Shown: positions 16,088-52,121 of the stretch, in pieces | How the letters are laid out: each line of letters opens with the position of its first letter | Numbering within the stretch: position 1 is the stretch's first letter | Source: a virus | Strand: one strand, 5' to 3' | Length of the DNA stretch: 64,000 nt | Virus record (IMG/VR): IMGVR_UViG_3300003690_000002 | Location: 96,001-160,000 of that record | Program-made: the position numbers and the translations under genes | Notes under the pieces: model-generated | Seen by the model: only the letters and a program-made list of their open reading frames with translations | What the model was told of the DNA's origin: nothing | Database searches by the model: none

Positions 16088-16429
16088 TTATGTTCTTTTT
16101 GGTATTGTAGTGAATTTTACGCCTAAAATTCTATCTCCCTCTTCATCTTTAATCTTTAATATTTTTGATCTTAAATAATCTCTATATGTGGCTATTGGTA
16201 TGTTTTTTGGCATGAATCTAACAGTTAAAACTGTTATTTTTTGAGTTGGACCGGTCTTTCTCGTCGCTGCCTCTGATTTGACAATTGTAACCCCATCAAT
16301 TGCCCTTATTTTGTTAAAAACGCTTGCATATAATGCCAAATCTTTAGAATATTTTATTAATATCTCTATTTCAAAGTGTTTTTCTTCCTCAAAGAGGTAT
16401 TTCTGCCAATTTTCAAATAATTTTTCCAA
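16088..16429 (-). CDS. Leader-A protein, unknown small alpha/beta domain
   Basis: MEKLFENWQKYLFEE leader. Confidence 0.7.
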   Translation of the reverse strand: MEKLFENWQKYLFEEEKHFEIEILIKYSKDLALYASVFNKIRAIDGVTIVKSEAATRKTGPTQKITVLTVRFMPKNIPIATYRDYLRSKILKIKDEEGDRILGVKFTTIPKRT

Positions 16430-16715
16430 AATAATTGTTCTTAAAGGTCAATTATGACCACTCCATCTGTTTTTTCATCTTTTTTTTCTTGTGTGGGTGG
16501 GATTTGTAAGTTTTCTAACATTGGAAGTCGTAAAAAATCTTGTTCTTGATCAATATTCTGCTTTTCTTGTTCTTCTTGCTCTTTTTTGATCAAAATATTG
16601 ATTAAATTTAGATCATTTATATCAATATCCCATATTTTTGGATTAAATGGCATTTCTATTACTCCTATATTAGTAATTAGTACCAGTTACTTGTCATATG
16701 TTCTTTTTATTGAAT

Positions 16716-17411
16716 TTATGTTCCTTGAAATCCCGGAGGGGCTGTTTTTGAGCGCTCGTAAGAAGGTTTTTTAATATATGGAGGATTTTTTGACCTATTT
16801 CCACCCATGCCAATATTTTTTTTCTTTGATTTTTCGTGCCCTTTCTTAACTGAAGCTTGATAATCTTCATCTAATTCTTGCAAAGCTAAATGTATTGCTT
16901 TTTTTTGATCGGGGAGAAGACCTCTAAATCCGTCTATCTCATGAATATCTACCCATTCATATTCTAAATTCTCTTCTAAATCAAGATCTATTGCCCCGGA
17001 ATACCTGTCTGTTTTGAAATAAGCTACATTTTTATGTTTTTTAACAAGCTCTAATTGACTAATTTCCAAATTTGTTTCTTCTTTAACCTCTCTTTTGCCA
17101 CCTGTTGCTACATTTTCACCTTTTTTAACATGACCTCCGGGGAGATCCCAATCATGATTCTTGTCAGCACGCTTTAAAAGTAAAAATTGCTTCTTCTCAT
17201 TAAAAATAATAACTTTTGAGACCTCATTTGTATCACCACCCTCCTCTGGAAATCTAGTTTCAGAATCAGGCACAGAAGAAGCATCAGCATATTGCCAAGA
17301 CTCTTCTCCCGAGCCTCCATATTTTAATGGATCCCTATATTTCCAGTTTCCTGTGGACTCTGGCTGTTCTTTTATGTATTTTCGCCAACTCTCAATCAAT
17401 AATTTCATCAT
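16716..17411 (-). CDS. Leader-A Nudix hydrolase
   Basis: MKLLIESWRKYIKE leader; Nudix box GGHVKKGENVATGGKREVKEETNL. Confidence 0.85.
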   Translation of the reverse strand: MMKLLIESWRKYIKEQPESTGNWKYRDPLKYGGSGEESWQYADASSVPDSETRFPEEGGDTNEVSKVIIFNEKKQFLLLKRADKNHDWDLPGGHVKKGENVATGGKREVKEETNLEISQLELVKKHKNVAYFKTDRYSGAIDLDLEENLEYEWVDIHEIDGFRGLLPDQKKAIHLALQELDEDYQASVKKGHEKSKKKNIGMGGNRSKNPPYIKKPSYERSKTAPPGFQGT

Positions 17412-17843
17412 ATTTTTTCCTCACTAAAACCAATATTAGGGTTTAAAAAACCCCCAGTCACCATTAGCTCTATACATCTCATCCCAGAGCATATCTTCAA
17501 CCTCTTTTATATGATCTTCATTGAGGAAATCTTTCATCTCGGCTAAATTGTCAAATGCTTCAGTAATATTTAATTTACCTTTTTCATATTCAATACAAAT
17601 CAAACACATTATAACTCTCCTCTTTGTTTATAAATAGTTATTTGTTTTTCATATCTCTTATCAATCTATTAAAGCGTTTATCTTGGCTTTTCAATGCGCG
17701 GACTTGACCATTGAGAAAAGAAATTTCCAGTTCAAGACTGTTTAATCTAGATTCCATTGTATAATAAAGACCCGCCATCACACAAGTTGTTGTAATAATT
17801 AAAATAAGTGTTTTAAAATCGATTTTTAGTTTATCCATTAACC

Positions 17844-18431
17844 TTATATCCCCTCATATAAATCAACGTATTCTTCCCAATCTTCTTCCGGGTCAAACGG
17901 TTTAACATCCGGCTCTGTTATTTCAGGCTTTTCAGGTGTTTTTTCAATAATTTTATTAGAAAATTGTTGCAAAGTTGACATATTTTGCTTAAAAAACACG
18001 AAAAAGAAGGGATTTTCATCACCTTCGTACTTAAATTCCTCTTTTTTTTCTTTAAATACCCCAAATTTATTATTTTTTGGTATAAATTTTTTCCAAACTC
18101 GAACTGCATCTGGGCTAGTTTCGTAGCTATCTGGTGAAAGACCTTTTTCTCCTGCCAATTCTAGAGCCATTAAGTACATGATTGTACCCACCCTTTCGCT
18201 ATTCTTGGGAGAAGATGACCACGATACTTCCCAATTAGGTACATCTATGCGTTTTTCAATAGAAATATAGGCATTTGTACCACTTTTTTTACTTGCTACT
18301 GGTTCTTTTGTGCTTATATCAAGTATATTTATGGTTATATCTTTTGAAGATTTTGTGATGTGATAAAAAAAATCATATGGGCTCTTATTCATATTTCTAT
18401 ATTCTCGCCAATTTTCAAGTAGGAGTTTCAT
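17844..18431 (-). CDS. Leader-A protein with GNAT-like fold
   Basis: MKLLLENWREY leader; RVGTIMYLMALE...LSPD...SPDAVRVW pattern. Confidence 0.5.
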   Translation of the reverse strand: MKLLLENWREYRNMNKSPYDFFYHITKSSKDITINILDISTKEPVASKKSGTNAYISIEKRIDVPNWEVSWSSSPKNSERVGTIMYLMALELAGEKGLSPDSYETSPDAVRVWKKFIPKNNKFGVFKEKKEEFKYEGDENPFFFVFFKQNMSTLQQFSNKIIEKTPEKPEITEPDVKPFDPEEDWEEYVDLYEGI

Positions 18432-18637
18432 TTATTTTCTCTCTTAATAGTATGTTTATTCCACTTTTGTAATTTTTTAATTAAATTCTCAAGGTTCCAT
18501 TTTCTTGGAACACAACACATTGGGAAAATAGCATGCAATAAAAAAACAATACCTCTAAATATTAAAACTAAACCAACTTTGCTAGCAAAAATTAAATGGC
18601 TCAAATAAGTTTCATTATTTTTCTTAAAATGATTCAT
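18428..18637 (-). CDS. Small membrane protein (DUF6356-like)
   Basis: NETYLSH...FASKVG...LLHAIFP. Confidence 0.5.
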   Translation of the reverse strand: MNHFKKNNETYLSHLIFASKVGLVLIFRGIVFLLHAIFPMCCVPRKWNLENLIKKLQKWNKHTIKRENK

Positions 18638-19266
18638 ACTTTAACTAGTTCTTTTTTTTCAAGGTCTAGTTTGTATCCAATTATTTCAGGATCAACTTCA
18701 CCTACGTTAAAAAAATCAAAACCAGGCAATATTGCTATTTTTTGTTCTGGAAAGGATCCTCTTTTTATAAAATAGCTAGCTTGACCTATAACTTCTGTAA
18801 ACAATGCTCCTGCGGCTTTAGGAGGGACCGTTTTCATATGTCCATTATATGCTGCTATTTCTCCTTGTAATGTAAAATCTGCACCTCTTTGACAGTGTGT
18901 CATGTAATCGTGTACTGCTCGTGTTTTTAAATTAAACTCGGGCTCAAATATAGGATGCTCCGTCCCGCCAGTCCAAATTTTTAAAACGCCATTTTGTGCG
19001 GCATCAGCGCACATTTCTTTCTCAGATGGGTAAGGATCTTCTTCTACAAACTGAACATCTACTCTAGATTGGATTCTTTGAAACATTTTATTGACAAATG
19101 GCTCTAGAGCTTCAAAAGAAGAAACTGCAGTGGGGTCAAACTCCGGAGCATTTTCATACGCTTGTGTAACTAATTCTCCATAAAGATCCCAACCATTTGG
19201 ACCAGGCTTAAGCATTAATTTTTCTGTTAATATAAATTCTCGCCAATTTTCAAGTAAAAGTTTCAT
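18634..19266 (-). CDS. Leader-A hypothetical protein, possible metal-binding HDxxxH
   Basis: MKLLLENWREFILTE from ATG 19266; RAVHDYMTH. Confidence 0.65.
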   Translation of the reverse strand: MKLLLENWREFILTEKLMLKPGPNGWDLYGELVTQAYENAPEFDPTAVSSFEALEPFVNKMFQRIQSRVDVQFVEEDPYPSEKEMCADAAQNGVLKIWTGGTEHPIFEPEFNLKTRAVHDYMTHCQRGADFTLQGEIAAYNGHMKTVPPKAAGALFTEVIGQASYFIKRGSFPEQKIAILPGFDFFNVGEVDPEIIGYKLDLEKKELVKV

Positions 19267-19802
19267 GCCTGTACCCCCATAGGTGCACCGCCCCACAAAT
19301 ATCGAAATTTAAGAGAGGGTTTGTACGGATCGCCGTCGTCAATATAAACGCTGATATTCGTCACCGGGATCTCCTCGCCCTTTTTAAAAGCCACCTCCGA
19401 TTCATCATAAAACATTTTAGGTTCTTCACCAGCTGCCTGCGGATCGTAACCAAAATCTTCTGCAACCATTGCTGAGAGAATGACATGGAGTGTTTTCCCG
19501 CGATTTTTAGCGCCCCACGGGCTTGCAAAACTCACGGCAACCCTTCGGTCAAGAGTCCAAGAAATTCCAATGCCTCGATCAACCGCCTGGGCAAGTAGAA
19601 TCCGTGCGGCTTCTGGTGCGCTTAAGCCTGCGGGTTTGTCCCGAGCAATCTTTCTAATTTGAGATGCCAAAGTTGCAGAAGGCATATCCAATGCCATGCC
19701 TCTATATATTTTTCGCATTTTCTTGGGGCGGGATGGCTCTGATTGTTCTAGCAAGTACTCTCGCCAATTTTCAAGTAGGAGTTTGATTGCTAATCCTCCC
19801 AT
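19263..19802 (-). CDS. Leader-A ADP-ribosyltransferase-like protein (R-S-E clade)
   Basis: IYRG, ISWT, DESEV motifs in canonical order; leader begins with ATC instead of ATG at 19787. Confidence 0.68.
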   Translation of the reverse strand: MGGLAIKLLLENWREYLLEQSEPSRPKKMRKIYRGMALDMPSATLASQIRKIARDKPAGLSAPEAARILLAQAVDRGIGISWTLDRRVAVSFASPWGAKNRGKTLHVILSAMVAEDFGYDPQAAGEEPKMFYDESEVAFKKGEEIPVTNISVYIDDGDPYKPSLKFRYLWGGAPMGVQA

Positions 19803-20200
19803 TGTGCTGGTTCTCTATGGCGCGTTAAATCAGTTACTACATTCTTGATGCGATTATGATAATCCTTTAAAGATTGTTCACCATATCGATATGGATCGAT
19901 ATAATCTTGTAATGCCACCTCTTTTGTTTTATATTTAAAATCATCAGAATTGCCGCTGTAAATATACATTGTTTTTAAAATACTATTAATTTCATTTTTA
20001 TCTTCTGTGGTTTTAAGTTTATCAAAAAAATCTAATAGTGTATTTGTCTGGTGAATGTTTTTGGATGGGTTCTTAATGATATCTAACTTTGTGATTTGTG
20101 AAAAAGTTTTTCCAATATCCCATGGTTCATCTTTAGGAGGAGGAAAAGAATCAATTCGTTCGTTTAAATATCGCCGCCAATTTTCAAGTAGGAGTTTCAT
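19790..20200 (-). CDS. Leader-A hypothetical protein
   Basis: MKLLLENWRRYLNE; late motif at 20205-20213. Confidence 0.7.
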   Translation of the reverse strand: MKLLLENWRRYLNERIDSFPPPKDEPWDIGKTFSQITKLDIIKNPSKNIHQTNTLLDFFDKLKTTEDKNEINSILKTMYIYSGNSDDFKYKTKEVALQDYIDPYRYGEQSLKDYHNRIKNVVTDLTRHREPAQWED

Positions 20201-20238: not shown

Positions 20239-20559
20239 TTAGACCGCGAAGGAAGAACCACAGCCGCAGGTGCGGGTCGCGTTGGGGTTCTCGAAATGGA
20301 AGCCGGAGAACTTAAAGGACTCGATGTAGTCGATGGTCGTGCCATCCAGATATTGGTGGCTCATGGGATCGACGTACACCTTCAAGCCATCACGCTCAAT
20401 GACTGAATCGCCCGCATTCTCTTGGTTTTCCAGATCCATATCGTAGGTGAACCCGGAGCATCCACCGCCGACGACCATCAGCCGAAGACCATAGCCTTCC
20501 AACCCTTGCTGATTGGCTAATTCTTGTACTTTTTTAATTGCTTTTACTGTAATGTTCAT
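20239..20559 (-). CDS. iscA: A-type Fe-S carrier (IscA/HesB/ErpA family)
   Basis: GGGCSG and C-terminal CGCGSSF; paralogue within the family uncertain. Confidence 0.9.
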   Translation of the reverse strand: MNITVKAIKKVQELANQQGLEGYGLRLMVVGGGCSGFTYDMDLENQENAGDSVIERDGLKVYVDPMSHQYLDGTTIDYIESFKFSGFHFENPNATRTCGCGSSFAV

Positions 20560-20592: not shown

Positions 20593-21039
20593 TTACTGTG
20601 GGACTTCTTCTACTATGCCCTTTATATTAATCCCGCTCAAAGGTTCAAAACTTTCTTCTGGTATTTTATTGGAATGGAAAGGTTTTCCACCTCCTTCGCG
20701 ATTTACAGCAACCGTGACGTGAGGAAAAGATATCTTTTTACTAATCTCACCAGGAGCTTGGACCTTTACTGCCATAGCACGTTCATCTCGCCCCACGGCA
20801 ATAACTGATAATGTGATTTCAGATCCCAAAGGGTAATCTTTTGAAAAATCATGTTTGCCTTTGGGGTGAACTAGCGAAGCAAAAGGAGCAATTGTCATAT
20901 GATGTACAACCGGCTCCCAGCCTTCAGGGATATCTAATTCTAGAAGCTTATTACGCGATTCTTCATCTAATACTACACCGGAATAAGCAATTGCTTCGGT
21001 TAATGTATACTGTCGCCAATTTTCAAATAAAAGTTTCAC
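20593..21039 (-). CDS. Leader-A 2H phosphoesterase
   Basis: MKLLFENWRQYTLTE; two HxT motifs (HHMTI, PHVTV). Confidence 0.78.
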   Translation of the reverse strand: MKLLFENWRQYTLTEAIAYSGVVLDEESRNKLLELDIPEGWEPVVHHMTIAPFASLVHPKGKHDFSKDYPLGSEITLSVIAVGRDERAMAVKVQAPGEISKKISFPHVTVAVNREGGGKPFHSNKIPEESFEPLSGINIKGIVEEVPQ

Positions 21040-21965
21040 TATTGTCTCCTCGTTTTTTTATAAACATCGTATACTTCTTTACTCGATTCTGTGCCTTTTT
21101 TAGCTAGGGATTTACCATAATCCAAGGTTTGCTGCAAATTACCTTCCCACTTAATAGTTACTTCACGGTACCAAGCTTCTGTACGAGCGCCAATATCAAT
21201 CCACCGGTCAAGTAATTCTACTCTGTCTCTTTCCGGAAGATCTTTCGCAAAATCTTCACCTCGGACCACATCTTTAAGCCCATCATATAAGACATTTAAA
21301 CCTTTATCGATCCCTTCCTTAGAGTTCATAAAATCATGTTTACCTTTTGCTTGGTGTAAATCGTCAATGCTGGCTAATAGTTTATATAAATGAGTGGGAG
21401 TTTTACCCTTCTCTTGACGTATATCAATAATGTCGACCAATTGTCCTTTCATTCCATCGACAATATTATCAGATACAGGCTTACCGCCGTAAGTAAGCTT
21501 CGCTTGGGCTTCGTTCTCAAATAGTACAGCAAAAGCAATATAAAAAGCAACTACAGTTAGCGTCATAGTCGCGACTTTACATACTGTGGGGTGGCTGCCG
21601 CAAAATCCTTGTACCTTCCTAATTAACCATCCTATTGATTTTAATGCTGCCATACCTGCCCTTCTAGCCAAGTCGACAAGCTGTACGGATTTTTCTAAAA
21701 TCCAATCATTTATCTTTTCCCACCCTTTCTGCAACAAGCCTGAACGTTCAGATGGAGGCTTATAATCAGGATCTGCTGTTAATTCGGCTTCTTTTTCCCA
21801 ATCTATTCCTATTTCTTCATTTAGAGAATTAAGTTCGAATAGTACAATATCTTGCCATCTTTCAATTAATTGATTATCAGAAATCAATCGTTTATCATGT
21901 TGTTCGCATATTAATTGAAATGGATTATCATTATATTTTCGCCAGTTTTCAAGTATGAGTTTCAT
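21039..21965 (-). CDS. Leader-A hypothetical protein with one hydrophobic segment
   Basis: MKLILENWRKY; TVVAFYIAFAVLF. Confidence 0.65.
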   Translation of the reverse strand: MKLILENWRKYNDNPFQLICEQHDKRLISDNQLIERWQDIVLFELNSLNEEIGIDWEKEAELTADPDYKPPSERSGLLQKGWEKINDWILEKSVQLVDLARRAGMAALKSIGWLIRKVQGFCGSHPTVCKVATMTLTVVAFYIAFAVLFENEAQAKLTYGGKPVSDNIVDGMKGQLVDIIDIRQEKGKTPTHLYKLLASIDDLHQAKGKHDFMNSKEGIDKGLNVLYDGLKDVVRGEDFAKDLPERDRVELLDRWIDIGARTEAWYREVTIKWEGNLQQTLDYGKSLAKKGTESSKEVYDVYKKTRRQ

Positions 21966-21980: not shown

Positions 21981-22748
21981 TCAAAGTGCTTCATTTATAT
22001 ATTCTTGTGGTTCAAGTTCAATCTTCGCGTGGGGATATCTGCTCATTAAATAATATCTCCATAATTCTCTAATTCTTCTTACTAGTGGGGTCAATTCTTC
22101 TTCTGCATATCCATAATTTAATCCAGTGTAATAAATTTCATTAATTATGTTATCAAGAAGCTCTCCAATTGGTTGTTTTTCTGTTTTTGCTCTTTTATAA
22201 ACTCCTGCGACGTGTCCTTTTACTTCAGATTCGCTTGTATAATAATCTTTAGCGGTTTGTAAAGTTTTCCATATTTCTTTGTCAGGAATCTTTTCGTAAA
22301 CTTTTTTAAGCATTTCAGTTGGCTGTCCGCTATGTTCTAACTCGTGGCGTAACGTTTCTTTGAGTTTTGGAATTAATTCTGAAAAATCTTTATTGGTATA
22401 AAGTTGTGGGAACTCAATATTAACATATACATCTGATAATTGTCGATCCTCTTCTGGTGCGTCTAAAATCCAATCATAGCTTCCATGTACAATAATACTG
22501 TGATCGTCTTCTAAATCAGATATTTTAACATTAACAATTATATCTCTAACCCATTTCAAATCTTCTAGCAGATCTGCTACTAGTGTAAATGTGGCTTCTC
22601 CGTTACTTTCAATATATGATCTTAGATCTTCATCTTTGAGCGCTTTAATAATTTCTCTTGAAAAATCAGTTGCATAACGATCTAAGCGTCGACCAGTAGT
22701 CCCAGCTTCATTTATAAATGTACGCCAATTTTCAAGTAGGAGTTTCAT
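21981..22748 (-). CDS. Leader-A zincin-like (HExxH) protein
   Basis: MKLLLENWRTFINE; TLRHELEH followed by a downstream E. Confidence 0.6.
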   Translation of the reverse strand: MKLLLENWRTFINEAGTTGRRLDRYATDFSREIIKALKDEDLRSYIESNGEATFTLVADLLEDLKWVRDIIVNVKISDLEDDHSIIVHGSYDWILDAPEEDRQLSDVYVNIEFPQLYTNKDFSELIPKLKETLRHELEHSGQPTEMLKKVYEKIPDKEIWKTLQTAKDYYTSESEVKGHVAGVYKRAKTEKQPIGELLDNIINEIYYTGLNYGYAEEELTPLVRRIRELWRYYLMSRYPHAKIELEPQEYINEAL

Positions 22749-22972
22749 TTCTTTAGTAACTCCTCAATATCATTCATTATTTGTTCAAGTTTTTCAATCT
22801 TTTCTACGGGGATTGACGCCATATTATAGTGTATGTCTGCTAATTTTTGTCCTAGCGCATCTTCAAGTTGAATAACATATTGTAAATTATCTTCACTGAT
22901 TTTTGGGCGATGAGGAAATTGTATAACTTCACCTTCAAGAAGTTTTCGCCAATGTTCCAGTAAAAGTTTCAT
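22745..22972 (-). CDS. Leader-A small protein
   Basis: MKLLLEHWRKLLEGE. Confidence 0.65.
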   Translation of the reverse strand: MKLLLEHWRKLLEGEVIQFPHRPKISEDNLQYVIQLEDALGQKLADIHYNMASIPVEKIEKLEQIMNDIEELLKK

Positions 22973-22982: not shown

Positions 22983-23765
22983 TTATACTATGTTATTTCC
23001 ATTAATTGACATCATTTTATCATAAGATAATATTCTTAAGCTCGATAATTTTTGAAGATAATCGTTTCTTCTTAGGACTTTGAATGCTAAGTTTTCAACT
23101 GAGAATGCTCCTCTCGTCTCTAACCCACACTGTCTAAATTTCCTTATTTTTTCCCTAAGCTGTTCTGAAGCGTTTAATGCTAACTTGTACTCTTTGTTAG
23201 AAAACATCTCATAGACTTCATCTATATCTTCCATTAATCTTGCAGCTTTTTTCTTAACATTTATATAATCAATCTTTGGGTTTTCTTTTGAGGGCTCTGT
23301 TACCCATCCATTATCAATTATTGAATATACTCCTGTTGAGTGATGTGGTTCACCTGAGTTTTGTACGTATAGTTCTACTTCAAATCCTTTTATTTTTATA
23401 TTGTGATTTTTATTCCATATACTTGAGCTTTTTCTTAAAAAATCTCCAACTAATTCAAAATTTTCATCAACTTCTTTATAATCAATTATAATATGTAAAT
23501 CTATATCTGAATATTTAGACCAAGTATAGTTTGCTAAAGACCCCGTAATTGTAATATCTAAAATTTTAACCCAATGCAGCCCAAGGCTTTCAAAAAAATC
23601 ATTTGCTACTTTATAAAGTTTATTTTTTATTTTTGATTTTAATTTGCCTCTTTCCCACACATCTGAATTAAGCTCATCTTGTATCTCAAAGCTTGAAACG
23701 TCAACGGATTCTGGATTGACTAATTCTTCAAGGTAAATCTCCCAATTTTCAAAGAGTTTTCGCAT
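22983..23765 (-). CDS. Leader-A Pol-beta superfamily nucleotidyltransferase
   Basis: MRKLFENWEIYLEE; TGSLANYTWSKYSDIDLH; third Asp replaced by VELYV. Confidence 0.78.
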   Translation of the reverse strand: MRKLFENWEIYLEELVNPESVDVSSFEIQDELNSDVWERGKLKSKIKNKLYKVANDFFESLGLHWVKILDITITGSLANYTWSKYSDIDLHIIIDYKEVDENFELVGDFLRKSSSIWNKNHNIKIKGFEVELYVQNSGEPHHSTGVYSIIDNGWVTEPSKENPKIDYINVKKKAARLMEDIDEVYEMFSNKEYKLALNASEQLREKIRKFRQCGLETRGAFSVENLAFKVLRRNDYLQKLSSLRILSYDKMMSINGNNIV

Positions 23766-24393
23766 ATTTTAATTCCTCTAGCTCTTCAATTGTTTTATTA
23801 ACAGATGTATGTAATATTGCAATTCCGCCGACCTTTTCCCATGGAACTGTGTTTATTGTGAAGTCATCAATTAGCACATTAGGTTTTTCATCTGCAATTG
23901 CCCATTTATATTTTTCGTGCGACATAAATATTTTTTTTGGTTCTGGGTGAAGATTGTTTTTAATCCAAATTTCTTTTCCTCTTTTTGATCCTTCACCTTT
24001 CATCGGTGCTGTTAAAATATAAGGATCGAATTTGCTTATATAAGACCATAATTCTTTTCCGCCTTCAGCCCAGGGGAGATTTGCCCAAAAATCTTCATTA
24101 TCTTCAAGTCGTTTATACATATATTTTCTTGCAGCCTGTAATCTATTCTCTTTATCCATTTTATCTAAATCTTGCGGAGTAACTGAATCGCGTCCAAGTT
24201 TAGAAAGTACGTGCCTTAATTTCTCCATTTTTTTGTCAGTAATGTTTTTATCTTTTAAATCTAAATTTATTTGTTCAAGTGCGCCAGTTTCAAAATCTAC
24301 CAACACTCCATCCATGTCGCAATAAATTTGATATGGAAAACTTTCATTTCCTTCTTGTAAATAATTTTGCCAATTTTTTAAATATTTTTCCAT
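23749..24393 (-). CDS. Leader-A HAD 5(3)-deoxyribonucleotidase (NT5C-like)
   Basis: MEKYLKNWQNYLQE; IYCDMDGVLVDF; ILTAP; K..W; LIDD. Confidence 0.85.
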   Translation of the reverse strand: MEKYLKNWQNYLQEGNESFPYQIYCDMDGVLVDFETGALEQINLDLKDKNITDKKMEKLRHVLSKLGRDSVTPQDLDKMDKENRLQAARKYMYKRLEDNEDFWANLPWAEGGKELWSYISKFDPYILTAPMKGEGSKRGKEIWIKNNLHPEPKKIFMSHEKYKWAIADEKPNVLIDDFTINTVPWEKVGGIAILHTSVNKTIEELEELKYAKTL

Positions 24394-24678
24394 AATTACA
24401 ATATATAAATAGTTTTTAATTGATTAAGCTTCTGACAGCACTTCAATTAATTCAAGTTTTATTATCTCCATATATGGTCTTTTTTTTAAACTCTGTTCAC
24501 CTTTTGGGAACCATATAACATCTGCCCTTGGGGGATGTTTATCAATTATTCTAATAATAAAACCATAACGCCATATACTAATACCTCTATCTAAATAAAT
24601 TTTTTGTCTAATGTATGTTCCAGTTGGTAAACACATCTCATAAGTTAATTAGTTAATAAATTGCATGTATGGTTTATT

Positions 24679-24891
24679 TTATAGATTATAGAAAGATTCA
24701 TTCATATGTCCACATGACGAGCAGTGGAATAGTTGAACAGGTACCATCATTTCTTGACCAGTGGGGGAGATTAGCGCAGACAATTTTTTAATAGCATATA
24801 CTTGTTTAAAAAATAAGCAGCCACACTCTTCACATGTGGCATCTTCAGCATCGTTTAAATTAATATTTAAATTTTGATTATCTTGATTCAT
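24679..24891 (-). CDS. Zinc-ribbon protein
   Basis: CEECG ... CSSCGH. Confidence 0.65.
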   Translation of the reverse strand: MNQDNQNLNINLNDAEDATCEECGCLFFKQVYAIKKLSALISPTGQEMMVPVQLFHCSSCGHMNESFYNL

Positions 24892-25201: not shown

Positions 25202-25273
25202 TGCATTATAACTAGCAGTTGAGTATGTAAAGTGGTAAATTGTCCCCGTAAAACGGGGACTTAAAAAAATTTT

Positions 25274-25852: not shown

Positions 25853-25869
25853 AGAATAAACTCCTAATG

Positions 25870-26301: not shown

Positions 26302-26350
26302 AATTCAGGTTCCTTTTTCCATACTATTATATACTATTATCGATAAAATA

Positions 26351-26683: not shown

Positions 26684-26774
26684 TCATATATAACTATAAA
26701 TGAACAGCTGTTTTTTTTAAAATTTTATTTTTGTGATTTTTTTAGATAGTCTGTTTCTCTTGTTTTTGCTTCCT

Positions 26775-34413: not shown

Positions 34414-34468
34414 GTCTTAATTATCTCAAATTTAGGCGAGTTTGTCAAGTATATTTTAAACTATAATT

Positions 34469-34498: not shown

Positions 34499-34507
34499 GC
34501 GAAGCTG

Positions 34508-41671: not shown

Positions 41672-43736
41672 TTAATATTCTGAAAGCACTTCGCATTCAG
41701 ATTCTAATAGTAAAAACTGTTTATTTTTATGTGTAGCTGGTTTTTGTGTAATTATAACATATTCTTTTATGTCAGAGCCTTTTTTTAACCTGCGCCACAT
41801 TGGTATGTCCCATATTTCAATAATTATGCCCCTACCTTCGGGCGGAATCGACTTTAACTTCTTGTTTATTTTCCACTTTATTAAATCACCAATTTTCATA
41901 TATTCATCATAACAAAAATTTAATAAAAAGTCAAGAATTTATATGACATTAATTATAAAAATATTTATTATTAAACATTATCATGTTCAATAACCTCTAA
42001 ATCTCGCTCAAGAAGCCATGTGGTTTTTTTACCAAGTTGAATTAAAACTGTTTTTTCGCGCTTGCCACCTGGATATTCAATGTGGCTTTCTTTGAGAATT
42101 AAAACTGGCTTACCATAAGTCCAGATATCTATAATCAATTGGCTATCGCCAAAATCAAACGAAGGCTGTATAATTATTGCTAAATCACCGGGCTTCACTG
42201 ATAACTTTAATCCATTTTTTGTTCATTGGCGCTGGTGGACTTGGATTATCTAGACACACCAACATATAACAGTCCTTGAGCGCATAGTAATTGCCAGGGT
42301 GTGGAGCATGTGGATTGTGCGCCTTTAAACTTGTTACGATGTATAGCCCAATAAAAGAAGGACCAACTTTTACTAAATTACCGATTTTCATTTATTTCTC
42401 TGCCCACCAAATGCCCCATACAATTAATGCAATTCCTGTAATTGTCAACCATGCCATGTTAATCCCCTTTTTTGCTGATAACTTGTATTTCATTTTCTTG
42501 CACCCACCACAATATGCCATCGCGAAAAAGAAAATGTACTTTATACATTGTTGATTTTGCTATTGGATTTTGAGATTCATTAATATCCAAAATAAGACCT
42601 AATGTATCTGTTGATATATTTTCTATTCCATACGGAAAATTACTTTCCGCTCCTATAAGAACTTGTGTTGGTGTTACAAGATCGCCTATCTTCATAATAA
42701 GGTTTTAATATTTTATAGTAAGATTAACTTTTTTTAGTTAATCGCCAATTGCCAACGTCAATATAATCACCAAAATGCTCTGCAATCACGGTCTTACTTT
42801 TTCCATAAGATACACGTACAAATTGCTTATTTCCTATGCAATTTTGTATGCCAATAACTTTCCCTGTTTTATTAATAAATGGCTTAAATCTTATATCGTT
42901 TTTTGAGAAACGCTTAAGTTTTACTTTATCTCCAATATTATAATACACTATGAACTCCCTTCTAAAGAATTTGCCAATTCTATTATGTCCTCATCACTAT
43001 CAACCCAAATTGCTTCGGGTATATTTGTTTTAACTTCGTAATTCATTTCTCCCATCTCTTTTGCTGCTCTTTCGATTCTTTCAGGCGTACCTCTTTCTTG
43101 GTGCCTTGTGATTAATTCTTGGCTAGATGGCGGTACACAGTAAACAAGAATTAAATTTTTTCCATTATGTTCAGCAATTTTTTTTAAATCATCATATCCA
43201 CGACTTCCATTAACGTTTGTAAAGTCCGTTAACATGACAGATTTTTTTGCATTTTTAAAATCTTTAAATCTGGTTCCGTAATAATTTTCTTCATAATAGT
43301 TTGTGTTTATCAACAAGCCATCTTCTTTCATCTTTTGCCATTCGCCTTTTTGTAAAAAACTATATTCAATGTCTTCTTTACCACGAGGTTGTCGCGTTGA
43401 AGTAGAAACGATTTCTTTCCATCCCATTTTTTTTAAAGTATTTTTATGCCAGGATTTTCCACAACCTGATGGACCAAAAATAGCAATAATTGTACCACCA
43501 GCGGATTCTTTTAAGTATTTTCTCCAGGCTTCAAGCAAAGGCTGCATATTTTAACTAGTCTCTTTTCTAAAAGATTCTAACCATGTTAGCTTATAAAGTT
43601 TATGAAATCCGTCCCTCCAAAGAACTTTGGCATGCAAATCATTAGAAGAGCCAAAGCGAAATATTTCAGTGACAAGACCAGCCTTTCGTGGACCTTCTTT
43701 CTGATTTACCATATCTCCGATTTCAATTCTTTGCAC
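41672..43736 (-). CDS. Array 3 of KOW/SH3-like small proteins (interrupted by gmk)
   Basis: 41672, 41971, 42185, 42459, 42724, 43551 all carry (I/P)G(D/N)(L/K/M)(V/I/A) near the N-terminus. Confidence 0.75.
42948..43547 (-). CDS. gmk: Guanylate kinase-like protein with a leader-A-like N-terminus
   Basis: MQPLLEAWRKYLKE; GPSGCGKS; VSTSTRQPR; NYYGT. Confidence 0.8.
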   Translation of the reverse strand: MQPLLEAWRKYLKESAGGTIIAIFGPSGCGKSWHKNTLKKMGWKEIVSTSTRQPRGKEDIEYSFLQKGEWQKMKEDGLLINTNYYEENYYGTRFKDFKNAKKSVMLTDFTNVNGSRGYDDLKKIAEHNGKNLILVYCVPPSSQELITRHQERGTPERIERAAKEMGEMNYEVKTNIPEAIWVDSDEDIIELANSLEGSS

Positions 43737-45187: not shown

Positions 45188-45457
45188 TTACTTAAAAACT
45201 GGGTTGCGGTGGGTTTCAAACATTTCTCTTAAGAAAGATTTTTTTAGACTTAATAGGCGTTCAAATTTTACTCTCTCTCTTGTATTGTGATACAACACAG
45301 TGGGTTTTCTTATTTCTCCGTTGATAAAGTGTTCGCTGAAATCGTAAAACTTGGATCGAACTTTTGGCGGTTTTGCGTTTGCTAGTTCAACACCAATAAT
45401 TATTAATAAAATTAAAGCAAGAAAAAAAGTTAGAATTCTTATGATTGTTACATTCAA
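45188..45457 (-). CDS. GltF/CglF-like secreted protein (myxobacterial gliding-associated family)
   Basis: Signal ending ANA; YDFSEHFINGEIRKP...RERVKFERLLSLKKSF resembles the recalled CglF pattern. Confidence 0.55.
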   Translation of the reverse strand: MNVTIIRILTFFLALILLIIIGVELANAKPPKVRSKFYDFSEHFINGEIRKPTVLYHNTRERVKFERLLSLKKSFLREMFETHRNPVFK

Positions 45458-48047
45458 CTTTTCGATTCTTCTTCATCATCGTCGCGTTTTGCAGAATGCT
45501 CTTTGTGATCCTCTGCAAGACTTGCTTCTAAAATATAAAGATCTTTAACAGGTATTGTACGAATATCATTATTCCCGAAATCTACATCATATCGAGTTAC
45601 TTCTTGTAATTTTTTATTCCAACTGTGATCAATTACAATACCTTTTTTTCCAGTTTGGCGCTCAGCAACATGGTGAGCGCAATAATGATTTGGGGCGAAA
45701 ACACGATTATTTTCTTCATTTAATATATTTTGTAATTCTTCTTTAATAATTTGCCTTAACTTTGATTTTGTTAAGTTCATTTCTTTTCCCTCTTTTTGAC
45801 CACCGTAAGCGAACCAACAATTGTTTCACGATTTTCGCCTTTTCTGTCCCATTTAACGACGGCTCGTCGATCTCCACCTTTACCACTTCGAAGCGCTGCA
45901 ACCATTCCTTGACCATATTCTTTATGTTTTACAATATCGCCTATTTTTACTTCCATTAAATCTGGTTGCCAAGGTAATCCTTCGGGTTCGGGCTCACTAT
46001 CACCTGTTTTTCTTTGTAAGCTTCGAGCCACCGGTAAAAGAAGATCCATGAGAGGCTCTTCGATGTCAAGTTCTATGTTCTCCATTGTATCTTTGATGAC
46101 AGTGGGGCTGAGCGGACGTCCTGTTGGTCCTTTATACTGTTTTAGAAACTCCCAAGCAGCACTCTTAATAGCATCGCTAGCGGCAGAAACTAATTTGTCA
46201 TTTAGCTGATATTCGGGGGCATTGAACCGCTCAAAGTCGTCTAATTCTTCTTTGATGATCCGTTTAAGTTTTGATTCTGTTAATTTCATTTCTCCTTGAG
46301 TGGTTGGAAGATCGCTCTTTTTTACAATCAAGTACCTTCCTTCACCAGTGGGATTATCAGGATCATCATGATTCTGCCAACGACCAACGAGGTTTAAAAT
46401 ATATGAGCGAAGCTTGTTCACTTCTTCTTCTGACATTTCTCCAAGAGATAAAAGGCTATCAATGCAAGCTTCTCCGCCATGATGCCACCCGAGGGGATCT
46501 TTTCGACCAGGACCCATCTTCAAACATCTACGATACAATTCTGCAGCTTTGGCTTCATTTGCATCTGGCCAATTAGCATTTTCTATCTCTTCTCTGATGG
46601 TTTGTTTAAGTTTTGATTTTGTTAGTTTCATTTTTACCCCTCTCTGCGAGTCATATTAGTAAATACGGCAGCTGCTATCTCATGAAAATTTATGGTGGGC
46701 GTTCCCTTGGGCACATATTGTTTTTTAAGCGCTATCAACGTTTCTTGTGCCGCATCACCATACTCGCCTCCCGTGTTGGTCGCATCGGCTAATTTAGTTA
46801 ATTCAGCTTTAATTTCTGGTGTTCCGGGATCGAGACTTAAAATTTTATCCATCAGGCTGTTCCCTTCAACTATTTTTTGAAGTTCTTCTTTGATGATTTG
46901 CTTTAGTTTTGTTTTTGTTAGTTTCATTTATTGTCTCCTATTAGCCCGATTTAGAAACTTGTATAATTTTAGCCAAGAATTTTTCAGATGTATAAAAACC
47001 ATGAGTCGGGGTCCACTGTCTGTCATCGGTGGGATCGGTGATCGTCTCTATACTCTTATCATGTCTGTCATCAGATATTTCTACGACAACGAAATCTCCA
47101 GCGGTATATTCGCTTTGAGATTCCGGATCTTCTAGTTCGACATCGGGCGAATCCATGAAATTTTCATGGATTACCACGCCGAGCGTCTTTAATTCTTCTT
47201 TGATGATTTGCTTTAGTTTTGTTTTTGTTAATTTCACCTTTTTTCTCCTTTAACTTTTTTTACGCAACTTTCATATTTTTCTTTATCTTTTCTTCCAACA
47301 GAAGCTGTGCAGATAGCCCACGGGTTGTTTTTTTCTTCTTTCTCTTCTAATACATTTTTATTAAACCATTCTTTAAGAAGATTCAAAAAAGCATAAGAAT
47401 CCTTATCGTTCATTTGTTTTGACATATTACGAATATTCTCAATAGCCACTTTGTGAGCATCCCATACTTTATCGCTCATTTGAGGACGTTCATTTAACAC
47501 TTCTTTAATAATTTGTTTGAGTTTTAATTTGGTGCTTTTCATGGCGATGTCCTCATTGGTCCTGTCAACAAGTTTTGCAGTTGTGTTATAAGATTTTGAA
47601 CATCTTTTTGTGTAGAGAAGGTCATGCCAACATTCCATTTATGTTCGTTTTCATTCCAAACGTGCATTTCCATAGTCAGCCCATCTTGGGTCCAATCAAA
47701 TCTAACACCTGGGCTAGCAATTATAGAATTTAACTCTTCTTTAATGATCTGCTTAAGTTTTGATTTAGTTAGTTTCATATTATTTAAGTACCTTTTTTGT
47801 TTACTACGCTAACATGCATACCACCTTCTTTTACTTTCTTTGCGTATTCTTTAGCGGCGTCTTTAGATACAAAAGTTTTAGCGTCTTCAAGTGTACCAAA
47901 ATTCGGATCATCAGGTTTACCACCGGTAACAAATTTTTCGTTAAAGGTAACACCAGACCTTTCTAAAACATATGTTTCTTTTTCTTCTAGAATAAGCTTA
48001 AGCTCTTCTTTAATAATTTGTTTAAGTTTGGTCTTCGAGATCTTCAT
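45454..48047 (-). CDS. Cluster of seven leader-B genes
   Basis: 45454-45780, 45777-46631 (two leaders), 46634-46927, 46941-47237, 47234-about 47540, 47539-47778, 47784-48047; all carry MK(L/I/S)(T/S)KxKL(K/R)QxI(K/R)E(E/V). Confidence 0.8.
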
Positions 48048-48050
48048 TGT

Positions 48051-48518
48051 TTATTCCTTAGCTCTTGTTTTAAAAAGCCTGTCACACCAATCTCTAGTTA
48101 TGCACCAATTTTTCTCTTGATCTTGACCCATATGATGGTTATAGTGCCAAGGTGCATGTTTTTTTGCCCATTGAATATTCATGTGGGATTTCTTATGTAC
48201 CCTGTAATAATTCCATGTACAATATACCAATATTAAATAAAATAATGGTATTATACTAAATAGTGGTAAATGTGCTAAAAGTAATAAAGATAATGATAGC
48301 TTTTCTTTCAAGATTGAACCACGAAATGGACTATTATATGATGGATCAAGTCCTTTGTGTTTTCTAACAAGCTTGTGGTGATCGTGCCAGTGGAATGCCC
48401 AAAATGAATTTTTATTTTTACCTAGCTTGTGTAAAATGTATTTATGTGAAAACCATTCTACAAAATTACAGTAAAAAAAAGCAATCGGAATTGTTAATAA
48501 GTGAAGCGTAATTAGCAT
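48051..48518 (-). CDS. Fatty-acid hydroxylase/sterol desaturase superfamily membrane protein
   Basis: His boxes HKYILH, HWHDHH, HKKSH, HYNHH. Confidence 0.75.
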   Translation of the reverse strand: MLITLHLLTIPIAFFYCNFVEWFSHKYILHKLGKNKNSFWAFHWHDHHKLVRKHKGLDPSYNSPFRGSILKEKLSLSLLLLAHLPLFSIIPLFYLILVYCTWNYYRVHKKSHMNIQWAKKHAPWHYNHHMGQDQEKNWCITRDWCDRLFKTRAKE

Positions 48519-51280
48519 ATGTTTTTTTCTTTTTTTCTTTCCTCTATTAATCTTAAAGCTTTGTAAATCATTGTGCGAACCTTTTTTTCAAGTGTAAGTT
48601 GTTTGTCTGGAATTTCTCCTTCGACTCGACCGAGATTCTTAAATCTTCTATAAATGCCTACTATTTTTGGTAATAGTTCTTGTAATGCTTTTACTTTCTT
48701 TTTGTTTAATTTTGAATAATCATTATTTAATATTGCGCTTTTGACATCAATGGAAGTCATTAATGTTTCAAGTTGATTGACTAAACTATCTGGGACCTCA
48801 CCTACTGTTTTGCCTCGCAGGTCTTCGATTTCAACTTTTTGCATAACATCTATCATTTTAAAAATTGCATCAATTTTTGTTTGCTGTCCTGCGCGACCTT
48901 CTACATATTTTTTTGAGTATGCCACATCTGCAACTCGTATCATGTCAGAAGCTTTCTCAACAAATTTTTCAAGATTTTTATCTATATGTTGGAGAAAATT
49001 TATTGCTGCATGCATTGTTGCAGGATCAATTTGTTCATCAAAGAAAAATTTAATATCTTGAATCTGAGCATGTCGAGGTGCTTTTGTTGCCATTGGTCCA
49101 TGTTTGTGTGGAATCCGTGGAAGAGGGCTGCCAACATCGATGTCCCTAAGTGATGGTGGAATTAGGTGAATTCGAATATTGTCTGTTATATAGTCTTTAA
49201 GGTAGTCTGGAGTTACAGGATCGACATGAAGAGGTAGTTCTATTTGCTTTTCTCCCTTGCCAAACAGCTCAAGCTGTCTATTGGCTGCATCTACAGATGC
49301 TTTAAGTTCTTTTTGAAATTGGTTTATAAGGTCATTTGTAAACTGCGTTGATTGAATAAAGCGATTATTAATAATTTGACCGTCTTCATACATGTTTTGA
49401 ACCATTTTAAAAAATTCATCTTGTTCTGTATTTTTAACCGGACCAAGCCCATACTTGGATAGATAACGTTCAGTACCTAATGAAATTTTAACATCACCCT
49501 CTGTTTTATCAATTTCTGTAAAATGTTTTAATTCTAGTCCGTCGTCTTCAAGCCTTATTACTAAGACGTCTGTGGCTGTGGGCTCAGCATATCCAAGGCT
49601 TGCAAACACTGATTTAATTTTTCTTCTAATGTTAGAATAGTCTGCCTCTACTTTTTCGATATCTTCTACAAAACTTTCGAAACCTTCTGGGGAAGAATCG
49701 TAGTAGTCCTGCGCGTATGGGTCAAATTGTATTGTTATATCCACTGTGTCGCCAAGAGTATTTATTGCTGTATCCTCGACCTGAAGATCTCCAAATTCAT
49801 CTTCTAGTGCCTCATCAATGTCATGATATAATACTTTTTTTTCCTCGTAAGATGCTGGTATCTCCTCAATGAAAAGATCTTTACTAAATATAATGTTAAC
49901 TCCACCATGGAAACTTACGTATGGATATCCTTCATCTCCTTCTTCTACATCGTAATTAACCCAGCAATGTTCAAGATCTGCTCTTCTTTCAACCTCTGCA
50001 GCCCCTTCCGTATATTCGTTCCATAGCTCTTCGTGTTGATCCGGTCCTTCATCGTCTGAGTCTTCTGTTACATCGCCTGTGAAAAGTGGCTGGAACTTCA
50101 TAAAAAACTTATTAAATAGTTTTGATGCTTGGCTGTCTGAGTATGAGCCCCCGGTGCGCGTGAACTTTCGCATATACTCTGGGTCAATTGCTCCTTCATC
50201 ATTGACTGCCTCTTTAAATTGTGGCTGATTTTCAAGAGCCCACGATCTTAATTTTGTATAAAATCCCGGAATATCTACACCATAAGTTCTTATTTCGGGT
50301 ATTGCTAAGTCGTATTTATGGTCACTTTTATGGAATCTTCGAAGTCTAATTCTAGAAATTGGTTCAATTCCTTCAATATCTCTCGCATCATCTTCAAATA
50401 TTTCCTCGTCATCAAGATTAACACCTTCTAAGTCTTTTGTTGCAACCACATAAGCTATTGGACCATGCCCTCTTGCCTCCCCCATGGCACAATGAAAATA
50501 ATCTGAACCTTCCGAATGACAAGAGTGAATTACTGCGAAGTCTGACATTCGCACAACATCGATTGGATGGCGAGAAATAATAATTGAGTATTCTATGCCC
50601 GCCGAGTCGGGATTTTCACGGTAAAATTGAGACTTTTTGTTCCAGAAATCTATCATTGAATTAAGTTGATGAAGCCCGGTGGATTTGCGCATTGAAGGAA
50701 AAGTCTTTTGTAAGGTTTGTTCTGTTGTATCTTCTTTGTCTTGTAAATCACGATATTCTTTAGACTTAATTATTTTATCCCTTGTTTCCTGATCTCCAAA
50801 AGGAATCGGAGCTATGTGTTCTTGATGAAATTTATATCGTTTGTTGTAAGCTTCCTGCGTTCGTTGACCCAAACGAAGTGCCTTGGCTAGTAATTTACCA
50901 ATCTTTTGTTTTTCTGTTCTGGGTTGACCAGCGCCAACTCCGGTAACACGTCGGACCGGAGCCGGGATGTTTAGATCCGGCGCTGATGCTTCCCTTGTAG
51001 CTAGTCCGGTTCCAATATCCGCTTTCCAGCCATTATCATCAAGGTATCTAATAATTTTGCCAACTCCTGATGTTGGGCTTATTGCGCTGCCTAAAGATAT
51101 ACTAGTACGCATTTTTCCATTAAATAACTTATTAAATGGCAGCGCCTCGTCGCCCTGATCTGCTAGCCAGTCTTTTATTCTACTATAGTTTTCATCAGAA
51201 ATCTCATTTAAAACTTCTTCATAAAGGGTTTGTTTTTCGGCTTGGTTTTGAAATTTTCGCCAATTTTCAAAATATTTCAT
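48512..51280 (-). CDS. Large leader-A protein (about 922 aa), unknown function
   Basis: MKYFENWRKF start coupled to upstream stop; acidic central region. Confidence 0.7.
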   Translation of the reverse strand: MKYFENWRKFQNQAEKQTLYEEVLNEISDENYSRIKDWLADQGDEALPFNKLFNGKMRTSISLGSAISPTSGVGKIIRYLDDNGWKADIGTGLATREASAPDLNIPAPVRRVTGVGAGQPRTEKQKIGKLLAKALRLGQRTQEAYNKRYKFHQEHIAPIPFGDQETRDKIIKSKEYRDLQDKEDTTEQTLQKTFPSMRKSTGLHQLNSMIDFWNKKSQFYRENPDSAGIEYSIIISRHPIDVVRMSDFAVIHSCHSEGSDYFHCAMGEARGHGPIAYVVATKDLEGVNLDDEEIFEDDARDIEGIEPISRIRLRRFHKSDHKYDLAIPEIRTYGVDIPGFYTKLRSWALENQPQFKEAVNDEGAIDPEYMRKFTRTGGSYSDSQASKLFNKFFMKFQPLFTGDVTEDSDDEGPDQHEELWNEYTEGAAEVERRADLEHCWVNYDVEEGDEGYPYVSFHGGVNIIFSKDLFIEEIPASYEEKKVLYHDIDEALEDEFGDLQVEDTAINTLGDTVDITIQFDPYAQDYYDSSPEGFESFVEDIEKVEADYSNIRRKIKSVFASLGYAEPTATDVLVIRLEDDGLELKHFTEIDKTEGDVKISLGTERYLSKYGLGPVKNTEQDEFFKMVQNMYEDGQIINNRFIQSTQFTNDLINQFQKELKASVDAANRQLELFGKGEKQIELPLHVDPVTPDYLKDYITDNIRIHLIPPSLRDIDVGSPLPRIPHKHGPMATKAPRHAQIQDIKFFFDEQIDPATMHAAINFLQHIDKNLEKFVEKASDMIRVADVAYSKKYVEGRAGQQTKIDAIFKMIDVMQKVEIEDLRGKTVGEVPDSLVNQLETLMTSIDVKSAILNNDYSKLNKKKVKALQELLPKIVGIYRRFKNLGRVEGEIPDKQLTLEKKVRTMIYKALRLIEERKKEKNIC

Positions 51281-51894
51281 ATGTGGGGGCTCCCTATCAT
51301 AATTTTCATATCTGCATGTATGCCACCAATTTTTCTGATGTACCATCCATCATATCCTGGATATATCCCTTCGGGGTGTTTTCCTATCCATTCTACTTTT
51401 TTTCCTAAAACTTTTTCAACATCTTTTTGATTATCAATATAAGGTACACCATGTTTTGTTAACATTATGTGTGCTATCTTTTTTGATGCTTCCCCATAAT
51501 ATCCAGATGTATTAAATAGCTTACTAAACTCGTCAAGAGCGATCATCTTGCTTGTTCTTTCTCCATCGTGTCCTACAACTGCTAGTTTGGTTCCTGCGCT
51601 TTTATATTTTCCTCCGACAAGAGCATCAGGGTCTGGATCCTCATCGACATCGATAGCTTTCCAATAAGTATAATCAGATGGAACGTCTTCTGAAGATTGG
51701 AAATCAAAATGTCCTTCCGGTTCGTGAGAAAAAGCAGTGGCAATTAAATCATAAAGTTGTTTTGTTAAATCTATATTTTCCTTATTTTTTAAATCTGTAG
51801 CAGATATGTCAACCCATTCACCTTTTTTTGGTTCGTAATCTTCAAACTTTTTCTCATTTATATATTTTCGCCAATTTTCAAGTAGGAGTTTCAT
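51277..51894 (-). CDS. Leader-A hypothetical protein
   Basis: MKLLLENWRKYINE. Confidence 0.7.
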   Translation of the reverse strand: MKLLLENWRKYINEKKFEDYEPKKGEWVDISATDLKNKENIDLTKQLYDLIATAFSHEPEGHFDFQSSEDVPSDYTYWKAIDVDEDPDPDALVGGKYKSAGTKLAVVGHDGERTSKMIALDEFSKLFNTSGYYGEASKKIAHIMLTKHGVPYIDNQKDVEKVLGKKVEWIGKHPEGIYPGYDGWYIRKIGGIHADMKIMIGSPHI

Positions 51895-52121
51895 TTATTT
51901 TCTTTACCCCGTTTTTTTAAAGCCCCATAAACTTTAGAAAGTTCTTCCCCGGTCAGATCATCCAAATGAGACTTACCCGTAAGTTCCTTAGTCCAATTCA
52001 TAAATTGAGCATCGTCGTCCCATGGGATATCTAACTCCTTTGCACGTTTGTGTATATCTTCTACGGATATCTTTTCTTCTTTTAAATATTTTCGCCAATT
52101 TTCAAGTAGGAGTTTCATCAT
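51891..52121 (-). CDS. Leader-A small protein
   Basis: MKLLLENWRKYLKEE; late motif at 52135-52143. Confidence 0.7.
   Translation of the reverse strand: MMKLLLENWRKYLKEEKISVEDIHKRAKELDIPWDDDAQFMNWTKELTGKSHLDDLTGEELSKVYGALKKRGKENK

Follow-up and report, generated by a model that had tools for sequence, protein, structure and literature searches.

A 14-residue N-terminal leader on unrelated proteins of an uncultured marine T4-type phage: a candidate capsid-targeting propeptide

The leader and the genes that carry it

We analyzed a 64,000-nucleotide stretch of DNA (the window) comprising bases 96,001-160,000 of the phage genome IMGVR_UViG_3300003690_000002. An earlier reading of this DNA (the original prediction) had noticed one N-terminal tag, leader A, on at least 16 genes, and had proposed that it loads otherwise unrelated proteins into the virion. 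The source genome is complete (186,398 bp, with direct terminal repeats), has nearly all of its genes on the minus strand and belongs to an abundant, uncultured, marine phage of the T4 type. All 16 genes exist, every one on the minus strand, and their open reading frames (ORFs) begin with MKLL[LF]ENWRx[YF][LI]xE or a recognizable variant. The positions first given for them located the genes correctly, but they mark the low (stop-codon) ends, with the leaders at the opposite, high ends.

Leader A is real and far exceeds chance. A six-frame motif scan of the full 186,398-bp genome found 16 such N-termini, all of them inside the window, plus one match at chance level. We also searched every open frame of the genome with a clade hidden Markov model (HMM) that had been trained solely on leaders from other IMG/VR contigs. 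Fourteen of the 16 leaders scored at E < 0.01, the weakest two being those of 22983-23765 (MRKLFENWEIYLEE) and 23749-24393 (MEKYLKNWQNYLQE). Scanning with a leader HMM had been proposed as a check, and it returned only these genes and hundreds of proteins in related phage contigs. At the nucleotide level, the window contains 10 copies of the core YTN-GAR-AAY-TGG-MG, where 0.07 would be expected from shuffles. Blind clustering of all N-termini of the genome yielded leader A, a second leader (leader B, see below), a genuine Rossmann family and nothing else. The sequences that follow the leader are indeed unrelated: with the first 16 residues removed, no pair among the 16 bodies was similar (BLASTP, E < 1e-4).

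The cargo labels of the original prediction stood to different degrees. Three are assigned by Pfam, and in each case the domain begins past the leader. Gene 2 (16716..17408, minus strand, as are all genes below) has MKLLIESWRKYIKE followed by a Nudix domain (PF00293, E 9e-18), and gene 13 (42948..43547) has MQPLLEAWRKYLKE followed by a guanylate kinase (PF00625, E 2e-10) whose P-loop starts at residue 19. Gene 11 (22983..23765), with the weak leader MRKLFENWEIYLEE (7 bits), encodes a Pol-beta-type nucleotidyltransferase (NTase) just above the cut-off (PF01909, 23.4 bits; cut-off, 21). The remaining labels are less firm. Two have support from predicted folds (genes 15 and 5, below), and three are suggested by motifs only. 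These three are the 2H phosphoesterase label of gene 7 (20593..21039, 148 amino acids, GTG start, VKLLFENWRQYTLTE), which has two HxT motifs; the zincin label of gene 9 (21981..22748, 255 amino acids, MKLLLENWRTFINE), with HELEH; and the HAD-type label of gene 12 (23749..24393), with DMDGV in a nucleotidase-like body. Gene 12 is the first gene of a 12-gene cluster and has the weak leader MEKYLKNWQNYLQE; its homologues on other contigs bear the canonical leader.

Gene 15 (51277..51894) carries MKLLLENWRKYINE on a GNAT-fold body. The AlphaFold model of its family is GNAT-like with a predicted local distance difference test (pLDDT) score of 93.6, and the leader helix, residues 2-12, is less confident. 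Nearly all of the ~50 homologues, at ~50% identity, retain the leader almost unchanged, and the tag is thus under stronger constraint than the cargo. One of these homologues has a 50-residue Lys/Cys-rich module in frame before the leader, which may reflect either a misassigned start codon or a protein of two modules fused at the leader.

Gene 5 (19263..19802) carries (MGGLA)IKLLLENWREYLLE, in which ATC replaces the leader ATG. An in-frame ATG lies five codons upstream (MGGLA-, window positions 19781-19802), overlapping the end of the preceding gene; translation is probably rescued by this ATG, which would place the leader five residues from the N-terminus. R29, S76-W-T and E129-S-E131 are invariant in 37 homologues, and the best Foldseek matches of the model are Rhs ADP-ribosyltransferase toxins and cholera-toxin-type chains, at borderline values (E ~1e-3; template modeling score, 0.38-0.5). 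The modeled fold thus supports an R-S-ExE ADP-ribosyltransferase-like protein, with E-values that are borderline. This protein had no Pfam match and no PDB sequence match. PDB sequence searches with three cargos gave nothing significant, the matches of the HAD-type 23749 being non-significant, and the ESM Atlas returned leads only for 19263 (EspN/DRAT-type clusters at 0.90-0.92) and none for 51277. In both AlphaFold models (the 51277 and 19263 families), the leader is a separate, less confident N-terminal helix (pLDDT 74 and 53-58) ahead of a confident domain, and the 19263 model has an unstructured linker after this helix.

The other eight genes complete the set. Gene 1 (16088..16429, 113 amino acids) encodes a basic protein with an unknown body, preceded by M/L-EKLFENWQKYLFE from a TTG start (HMM, 14.3 bits). 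Unknown bodies also follow the leaders of gene 3 (17844..18431, 195 amino acids, MKLLLENWREYRNM), which lacks L-x-E at residues 12-14, and gene 6 (19790..20200, 136 amino acids, MKLLLENWRRYLNE). The body of gene 4 (18634..19266, 210 amino acids, MKLLLENWREFILTE) is matched by phrog_3170 and by a Rhodococcus phage E3 protein that is annotated as structural. Gene 8 (21039..21965, 308 amino acids, MKLILENWRKYNDN) has a hydrophobic segment and lacks L-x-E. Two genes encode 75 amino acids each: gene 10 (22745..22972, MKLLLEHWRKLLEGE) and gene 16 (51891..52118, MKLLLENWRKYLKE), the top match of the clade HMM at 33.2 bits. Gene 14 (48512..51280, 922 amino acids, unknown function) has a shortened, degenerate leader, MKYFENWRKFQNQAE, and its start is most likely at 51280 rather than 51346. 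Its family adjoins leader genes in 38 of the at least 119 related loci described below, mostly with other N-termini.

Some other genes also touch on the leader. Relatives of the 922-residue protein (48512-51280) start with ..QLLENFN..., and a nuclease-like protein beside a Mom gene (58193-59251) starts with MSLDQLIENFFRP; both starts may be degenerate copies of leader A that the HMM missed. The 12-gene cluster also contains leaderless genes (20239-20559, 17436-17838, 18428-18637), which encode an IscA/HesB-like protein of 106 amino acids (by sequence reading), a Cys-rich protein of 57 amino acids and two small membrane-type proteins.

Leader genes had been described as lying behind a late-type promoter. 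A motif does head both leader-A blocks, but it is ACTA[AT]TTA[TC] and not the T4 late promoter TATAAATA, which was not enriched (13 versus 20 on the coding strand) and which we replaced by this empirical motif. ACTA[AT]TTA[TC] is enriched in intergenic DNA and lies 11-69 nucleotides before scaffold, sheath-like and other structural genes. The copy CTATTTAT (24405..24412, minus strand), a putative late-promoter motif, is 19 nucleotides before the first gene of the 12-gene cluster, with further copies inside the cluster at 17630-17637 and 16673-16680. A variant of this putative promoter motif, CTAATTAC (52135..52142, minus strand), is 21 nucleotides before gene 16 (51891), just after an intrinsic-terminator-like hairpin. 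Among relatives, CTATTTAT lies within 70 nucleotides upstream of 7.6% of leader genes versus a background of 0.6%, an enrichment of ~12-fold that hints at co-expression with the structural genes. Note that sigma70-type promoters of the form TTGACA-N17-(GA)GATAAT or TATACT also occur in the window (32493, 34448, 35660, 36406, 37285, 40999, 52763 and 54924); these are distinct from ACTA[AT]TTA[TC] and front presumed early genes.

Relatives, leader exchange and the head module

The leader is widespread among related phage contigs. We defined the tagged loci of relatives as IMG/VR matches to a degenerate DNA pattern for MKLLLENWR, and found at least 119 such loci containing 219 tagged ORFs. Together with the 16 proteins described above, these ORFs make up 92 cargo families, of which 51 are singletons. 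Most of the 92 families are without a Pfam match; those of the relatives that have one include protein kinases, a zeta-toxin-type kinase, an RNase T-type exonuclease and a 2H-type phosphodiesterase. Complete relatives have between one and seven strict leader cores each; these are always on the coding strand, and most of them occur in clusters. The clade has many members: patterns derived from the prohead protease match at least 599 IMG/VR stretches, the best 80 of which code for a protease with 68-80% identity to that of the source genome. Among phage isolates, the window gave no megablast match, and no homologues of the 19263-type or 51277-type cargo were found. For the capsid protein and protease, the closest isolate matches, with 37-55% identity, come from Flavobacterium phage immuto and Microcystis phage Mel-JY01.

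The tag was not found on bacterial housekeeping genes. Across prokaryotes, represented by one genome per species (185,579 species), 10 stretches match the leader pattern, and only four of these have the full leader; the remaining stretches are chance matches. The four are on short contigs (39-41% GC) of metagenome-assembled genomes, which have been binned as Woesearchaeota, Isosphaeraceae and Gammaproteobacteria. These contigs are most likely mis-binned phage DNA. On present sequence data, the tag is specific to this phage clade.

Leader A is not the only such tag. Leader B (MKLTKSKLKQIIKEEL), which has I-K-E at residues 12-14, heads ~10 small genes of the window (24878-27298 and 45454-48047) and a 203-amino acid gene (C1:16921-17532) directly after the prohead protease. 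A third leader, MNLLREYIRELITE, is found on orthologues of the ADP-ribosyltransferase-like cargo and has I-T-E at residues 12-14. It keeps the pattern M-x-L-L-x-E-x-hydrophobic-R-x-hydrophobic-hydrophobic-x-E without keeping the nucleotides. Furthermore, the same module can have different starts. The CPPATQDLELNTKNR module has leader A in some proteins and a basic MKLIVKIKK start in others, the CWPGYEKKGMKK module starts with leader B or an A-like leader, and the Lys-rich DLYGPLDEKKKK module has leader A either prepended or absent, with the junction just after Glu14. Leaders are swapped or prepended on homologous cargo, with the junction at or just past Glu14. It appears that leader B and the third leader can replace leader A as tags for a single route.

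The position of this junction coincides with a candidate cutting motif. Most leaders were said to end in L/I-x-E, and in 13 of the 16 an (L/I)-x-E does lie no more than one residue away from position 14. In a set of 199 distinct leaders, 94% have L, I, V or M at residue 12 and 84% have E at residue 14, beyond which conservation falls away. T4 gp21 cleaves after L/I-x-E (PMC9026906). The search for a prohead protease, a further check that had been proposed, found a gp21-type (Peptidase_S77) gene at C1:17536-18144 (PF03420, 112.6 bits) in a T4-like head module. When the capsid proteins are aligned, L-R-E|A of this phage falls at the maturation site of T4 gp23, L-T-E|A.

In relatives, the leaders are linked to this head module. 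The slot after the protease is hypervariable and often holds leader B, canonical leader A (such as MKLIMENWRRFINE) or an A-like core such as ..ESWRKHLSEE, and immediately upstream of the protease there are more genes with leader A or leader B. In 32 of 57 distinct related loci with both flanks present, the protease has a leader-A-like or leader-B gene right beside it; none of 469 ORFs farther downstream had such a start. These protease-flanking positions are occupied by the core genes 67, 68 and 22 in the T4 record. The idea that the leader is a copy of the capsid N-terminal LLDKWEQ..LLEGL, prompted by MKLLLEHWRKLLEGE, was rejected, as the clade HMM gives the capsid protein no score. Separately, a gene for ribosomal protein bS21 (phrog_21469, C1:16236-16469) lies in the head module between protease and scaffold, and is kept at the same place in ~50 related loci and in Microcystis phage Mel-JY01. 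The putative scaffold gene is at C1:13357-14391, and a conserved core protein of 140 amino acids is encoded at C1:16493-16915.

A candidate capsid-targeting propeptide

We propose, with a probability of about 0.6, that leader A is a capsid (prohead-core) targeting propeptide of the type of the T4 capsid-targeting sequence (CTS). This agrees with the interpretation put forward in the original prediction, which at that same level of confidence is the best available. The leader would form a 14-residue amphipathic N-terminal helix that docks its cargo on the scaffolding core during prohead assembly. The gp21-type serine protease would then cut after Glu14 of [LIVM]-x-E, releasing the mature cargo inside the head, and the cargo would exit with the DNA at the next infection and act ahead of phage gene expression. 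Proteins delivered in this way would include ADP-ribosyltransferase-like, GNAT-like, Nudix, nucleotidyltransferase, phosphoesterase and zincin-like enzymes, to which relatives would add kinases, nucleases and a protein resembling zeta toxin. Recombination can probably shift the tag between genes by way of the first nine codons, whose DNA is nearly identical.

What we observed directly comprises a modular tag restricted to phages, a gene for the protease, a motif at a fixed position and, in relatives, a link to the head module. Each proposed check that could be run came out as predicted, and the overall interpretation is partly supported. Binding to the core, cleavage and removal of the tag, packaging into virions, ejection (injection) and the action of the cargo in the host are steps that we infer.

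Several observations weigh against this proposal. The mature cargo is mostly acidic: the median isoelectric point (pI) in relatives is 4.8, and 14 of the 16 proteins here have a pI of ≤6.3, with only two of the 16 basic. Lys-rich basic modules are present on some tagged proteins of relatives. Several cargos (guanylate kinase, nucleotidase and Nudix) have no obvious need for injection and would be equally useful if made after infection. Three of the 16 leaders (17844, 21039 and 48512) are without (L/I)-x-E near residue 14, and the head module of the source genome contains no leader-A gene. Leader A has no sequence similarity to the T4 CTS, MKTYQEFIAE, with which only M1, K2, E6 and the final E coincide. 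ACTA[AT]TTA[TC] is a putative late promoter solely by its association with structural genes, most leader genes lie within long operons, and the region of the second leader-A block also has sigma70-type early promoters. The best protease match in an isolate is 48% identical, with no close cultured relative found, and the leader core was not found in the isolates immuto, Mel-JY01, HTVC008M (Pelagibacter) and P-SSM2 (Prochlorococcus). Finally, the first nine codons are conserved in nucleotides more than the peptide requires; part of the conservation is therefore not due to protein function.

Some of these observations would be expected if the leader were instead a cytoplasmic docking helix that gathers enzymes on a phage or host hub, such as a nucleotide-metabolism or replication complex, a membrane or the phage's own GroEL, without any packaging. 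In the models the leader lies apart from the catalytic fold as an amphipathic helix, many cargos handle nucleotides (guanylate kinase, Nudix, nucleotidase and NTase), and their mostly acidic character is that of soluble enzymes. However, docking of this kind leaves unexplained the fixed [LIVM]-x-E at residues 12-14 on three leaders, the protease-flanking leader genes of relatives and the promoter motif shared with structural genes. A search for an obligatory partner found no gene family common to all of the at least 119 tagged loci, although these loci are partial. We consider a docking role unlikely. A recognition tag for a processing enzyme, again without packaging, is the least probable explanation that we weighed; it could be an N-terminal degron, read by a host or phage protease, that limits effector lifetime, or a modification site. 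A short N-terminal peptide common to many unrelated proteins is what such a tag would look like, yet no modifying-enzyme family consistently co-occurs in these same partial loci, the window showed no radical-SAM gene, and the link to the head module would again go unexplained.

The DNA of the leader raises a different possibility, namely that the conserved element is a nucleic acid (a 27-nucleotide recombination handle or the operator of a translational regulator) and the peptide is incidental. Codons 3-5 and 9 are skewed: CTC, CTA, CTT and CGA are used there in 59%, 73%, ~57% and 56% of the copies, compared with 5%, 12%, 23% and 16% of the respective codon families in the genome as a whole, where TTA and AGA dominate. 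Copies within a contig are more alike than copies from different contigs (1.93 versus 2.95 differences per 24 nucleotides), and each complete relative has a single codon-5 variant throughout its copies. The same DNA-level effect is seen in T4, where ipII and ipIII share an identical 30-nucleotide stretch encoding the CTS. We rejected RNA structure as the cause of the codon bias, as the native codons are average in stability among synonymous recodings. Protein-level selection is nevertheless evident, because residues 10-14 are conserved as amino acid classes with varied codons, the third leader keeps the residue pattern without the nucleotides, and orthologues at ~50% identity keep the peptide. 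A role as nucleic acid is thus more probably an extra than the chief function, and as a full explanation it is improbable, ranking between docking and the processing tag. The conservation of the first nine codons in DNA suggests exchange by recombination. The simplest reading is that recombination keeps the leader DNA uniform, as a handle for moving tag or cargo, on top of protein-level selection. Capsid targeting remains our preferred reading: no rival accounts at once for the fixed position of the protease motif on three leaders and for the association with the protease's neighbors.

A broader proposal is more tentative, and we hold it with less confidence than capsid targeting itself. The clade could run an open-ended system of virion effector delivery, with at least three interchangeable 14-residue tags on more than 90 mostly acidic enzyme families, copied onto new genes by recombination at their conserved DNA. 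Each tag would end in the site of the head protease at residue 14, and the enzymes loaded for injection would include ADP-ribosyltransferase, GNAT, kinase, nuclease and nucleotide-handling types. Such a plug-in system would greatly exceed the internal-protein set of T4 in size and in its share of enzymes.

Other genes of the window include a PIN-PhoH fusion (44-1360), a phage GroEL (Cpn60; 55254-56822) and an enzyme of the GMP reductase/IMPDH family (62390-63427). A 613-amino acid Cys-rich MopE-repeat/VWA protein lies behind a lipoprotein-like small ORF (13984-15825), and a MoxR-type AAA ATPase is accompanied by a DUF2201 metallopeptidase/VWA partner (33175-35596).

Comparison with known systems and significance

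The T4 CTS was reportedly described by Mullaney and Black in 1996 on IPI, IPII, IPIII and Alt, from which gp21 is said to remove it. The first ten residues of IPIII suffice for loading into the prohead core and are then removed by gp21, and the packaged Alt is an ADP-ribosyltransferase (PMC9026906). The T4 internal proteins are diverse and share little beyond the CTS (PMC3012670). Leader A resembles this system in being a short, putative N-terminal propeptide on otherwise unrelated proteins that ends in L/I-x-E, in a phage that encodes a gp21-family protease. Further likenesses are the variable gene arrays, the near-identical tag DNA between copies and one ADP-ribosyltransferase-like cargo, comparable with Alt.

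There are also clear differences from T4. A back-translated pattern of the T4 CTS, allowing three mismatches, found nothing in the source genome; the same pattern finds ipII and ipIII in T4. The tag has 14 residues rather than 10, and there are 16 leader-A and 10 leader-B genes compared with a handful in T4. There are at least three interchangeable leaders, and the cargo consists mostly of acidic enzymes, in contrast to the small basic proteins of T4. Leader A would thus work like the T4 CTS, most of whose testable defining features its sequence shares, but differs from it in sequence, copy number, number of leaders and type of cargo. As a separate observation, the N-terminus of T4 gp21 itself, MNEPQLLIETW (T4 record 8449-9087), is similar to KLLLENW in leader A, a short match that could be due to coincidence. 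The LIE-9 site in this N-terminus has been discussed as a possible targeting propeptide (PMC9026906).

Related arrangements are found in giant phages. In phiKZ, 201phi2-1 and SPN3US, internal head proteins carry propeptides at the N-terminus, which are cut after Glu by a gp21 homologue, and, as with leader A, paralogues may share identical N-termini over divergent bodies (PMC5694885). The giant phages differ in their motif, S/A/G-x-E or A-x-E, and in propeptides that often exceed 100 residues (PMC5694885). They also differ in having no short portable tag across dozens of unrelated enzymes.

Outside this group, a likeness as a portable loading tag is seen with the cargo-loading peptides of encapsulins, which are short and direct diverse enzymes into a shell of the HK97 fold. 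These peptides differ from leader A in position, processing and delivery: they are mostly found at the C-terminus, attach directly to the shell protein, stay in place without protease removal and do not serve delivery into another cell. Virion-delivered 'polyvalent proteins', reportedly described by Iyer et al. in 2017, combine many domains in one giant protein that is thought to enter with the DNA. Their repertoire of ADP-ribosyltransferases, zincins, nucleases and kinases is similar to that found here, where single-domain proteins each have their own tag.

If leader A is a capsid-targeting propeptide, it would provide a sequence rule with which the injected 'first-strike' proteins of common ocean phages could be listed from metagenomes, a task that took decades of genetics in T4. 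Dozens of uncharacterized families would become candidate host-takeover or anti-defense factors, and the leader would be a ready tag for packaging foreign proteins in non-model phages. Should it have another role, such as the assembly of cytoplasmic complexes, it would represent a new way for phages to organize enzymes. If our reading is right, the capsid-targeting principle known from T4 would be old, general and able to carry whole enzymes.

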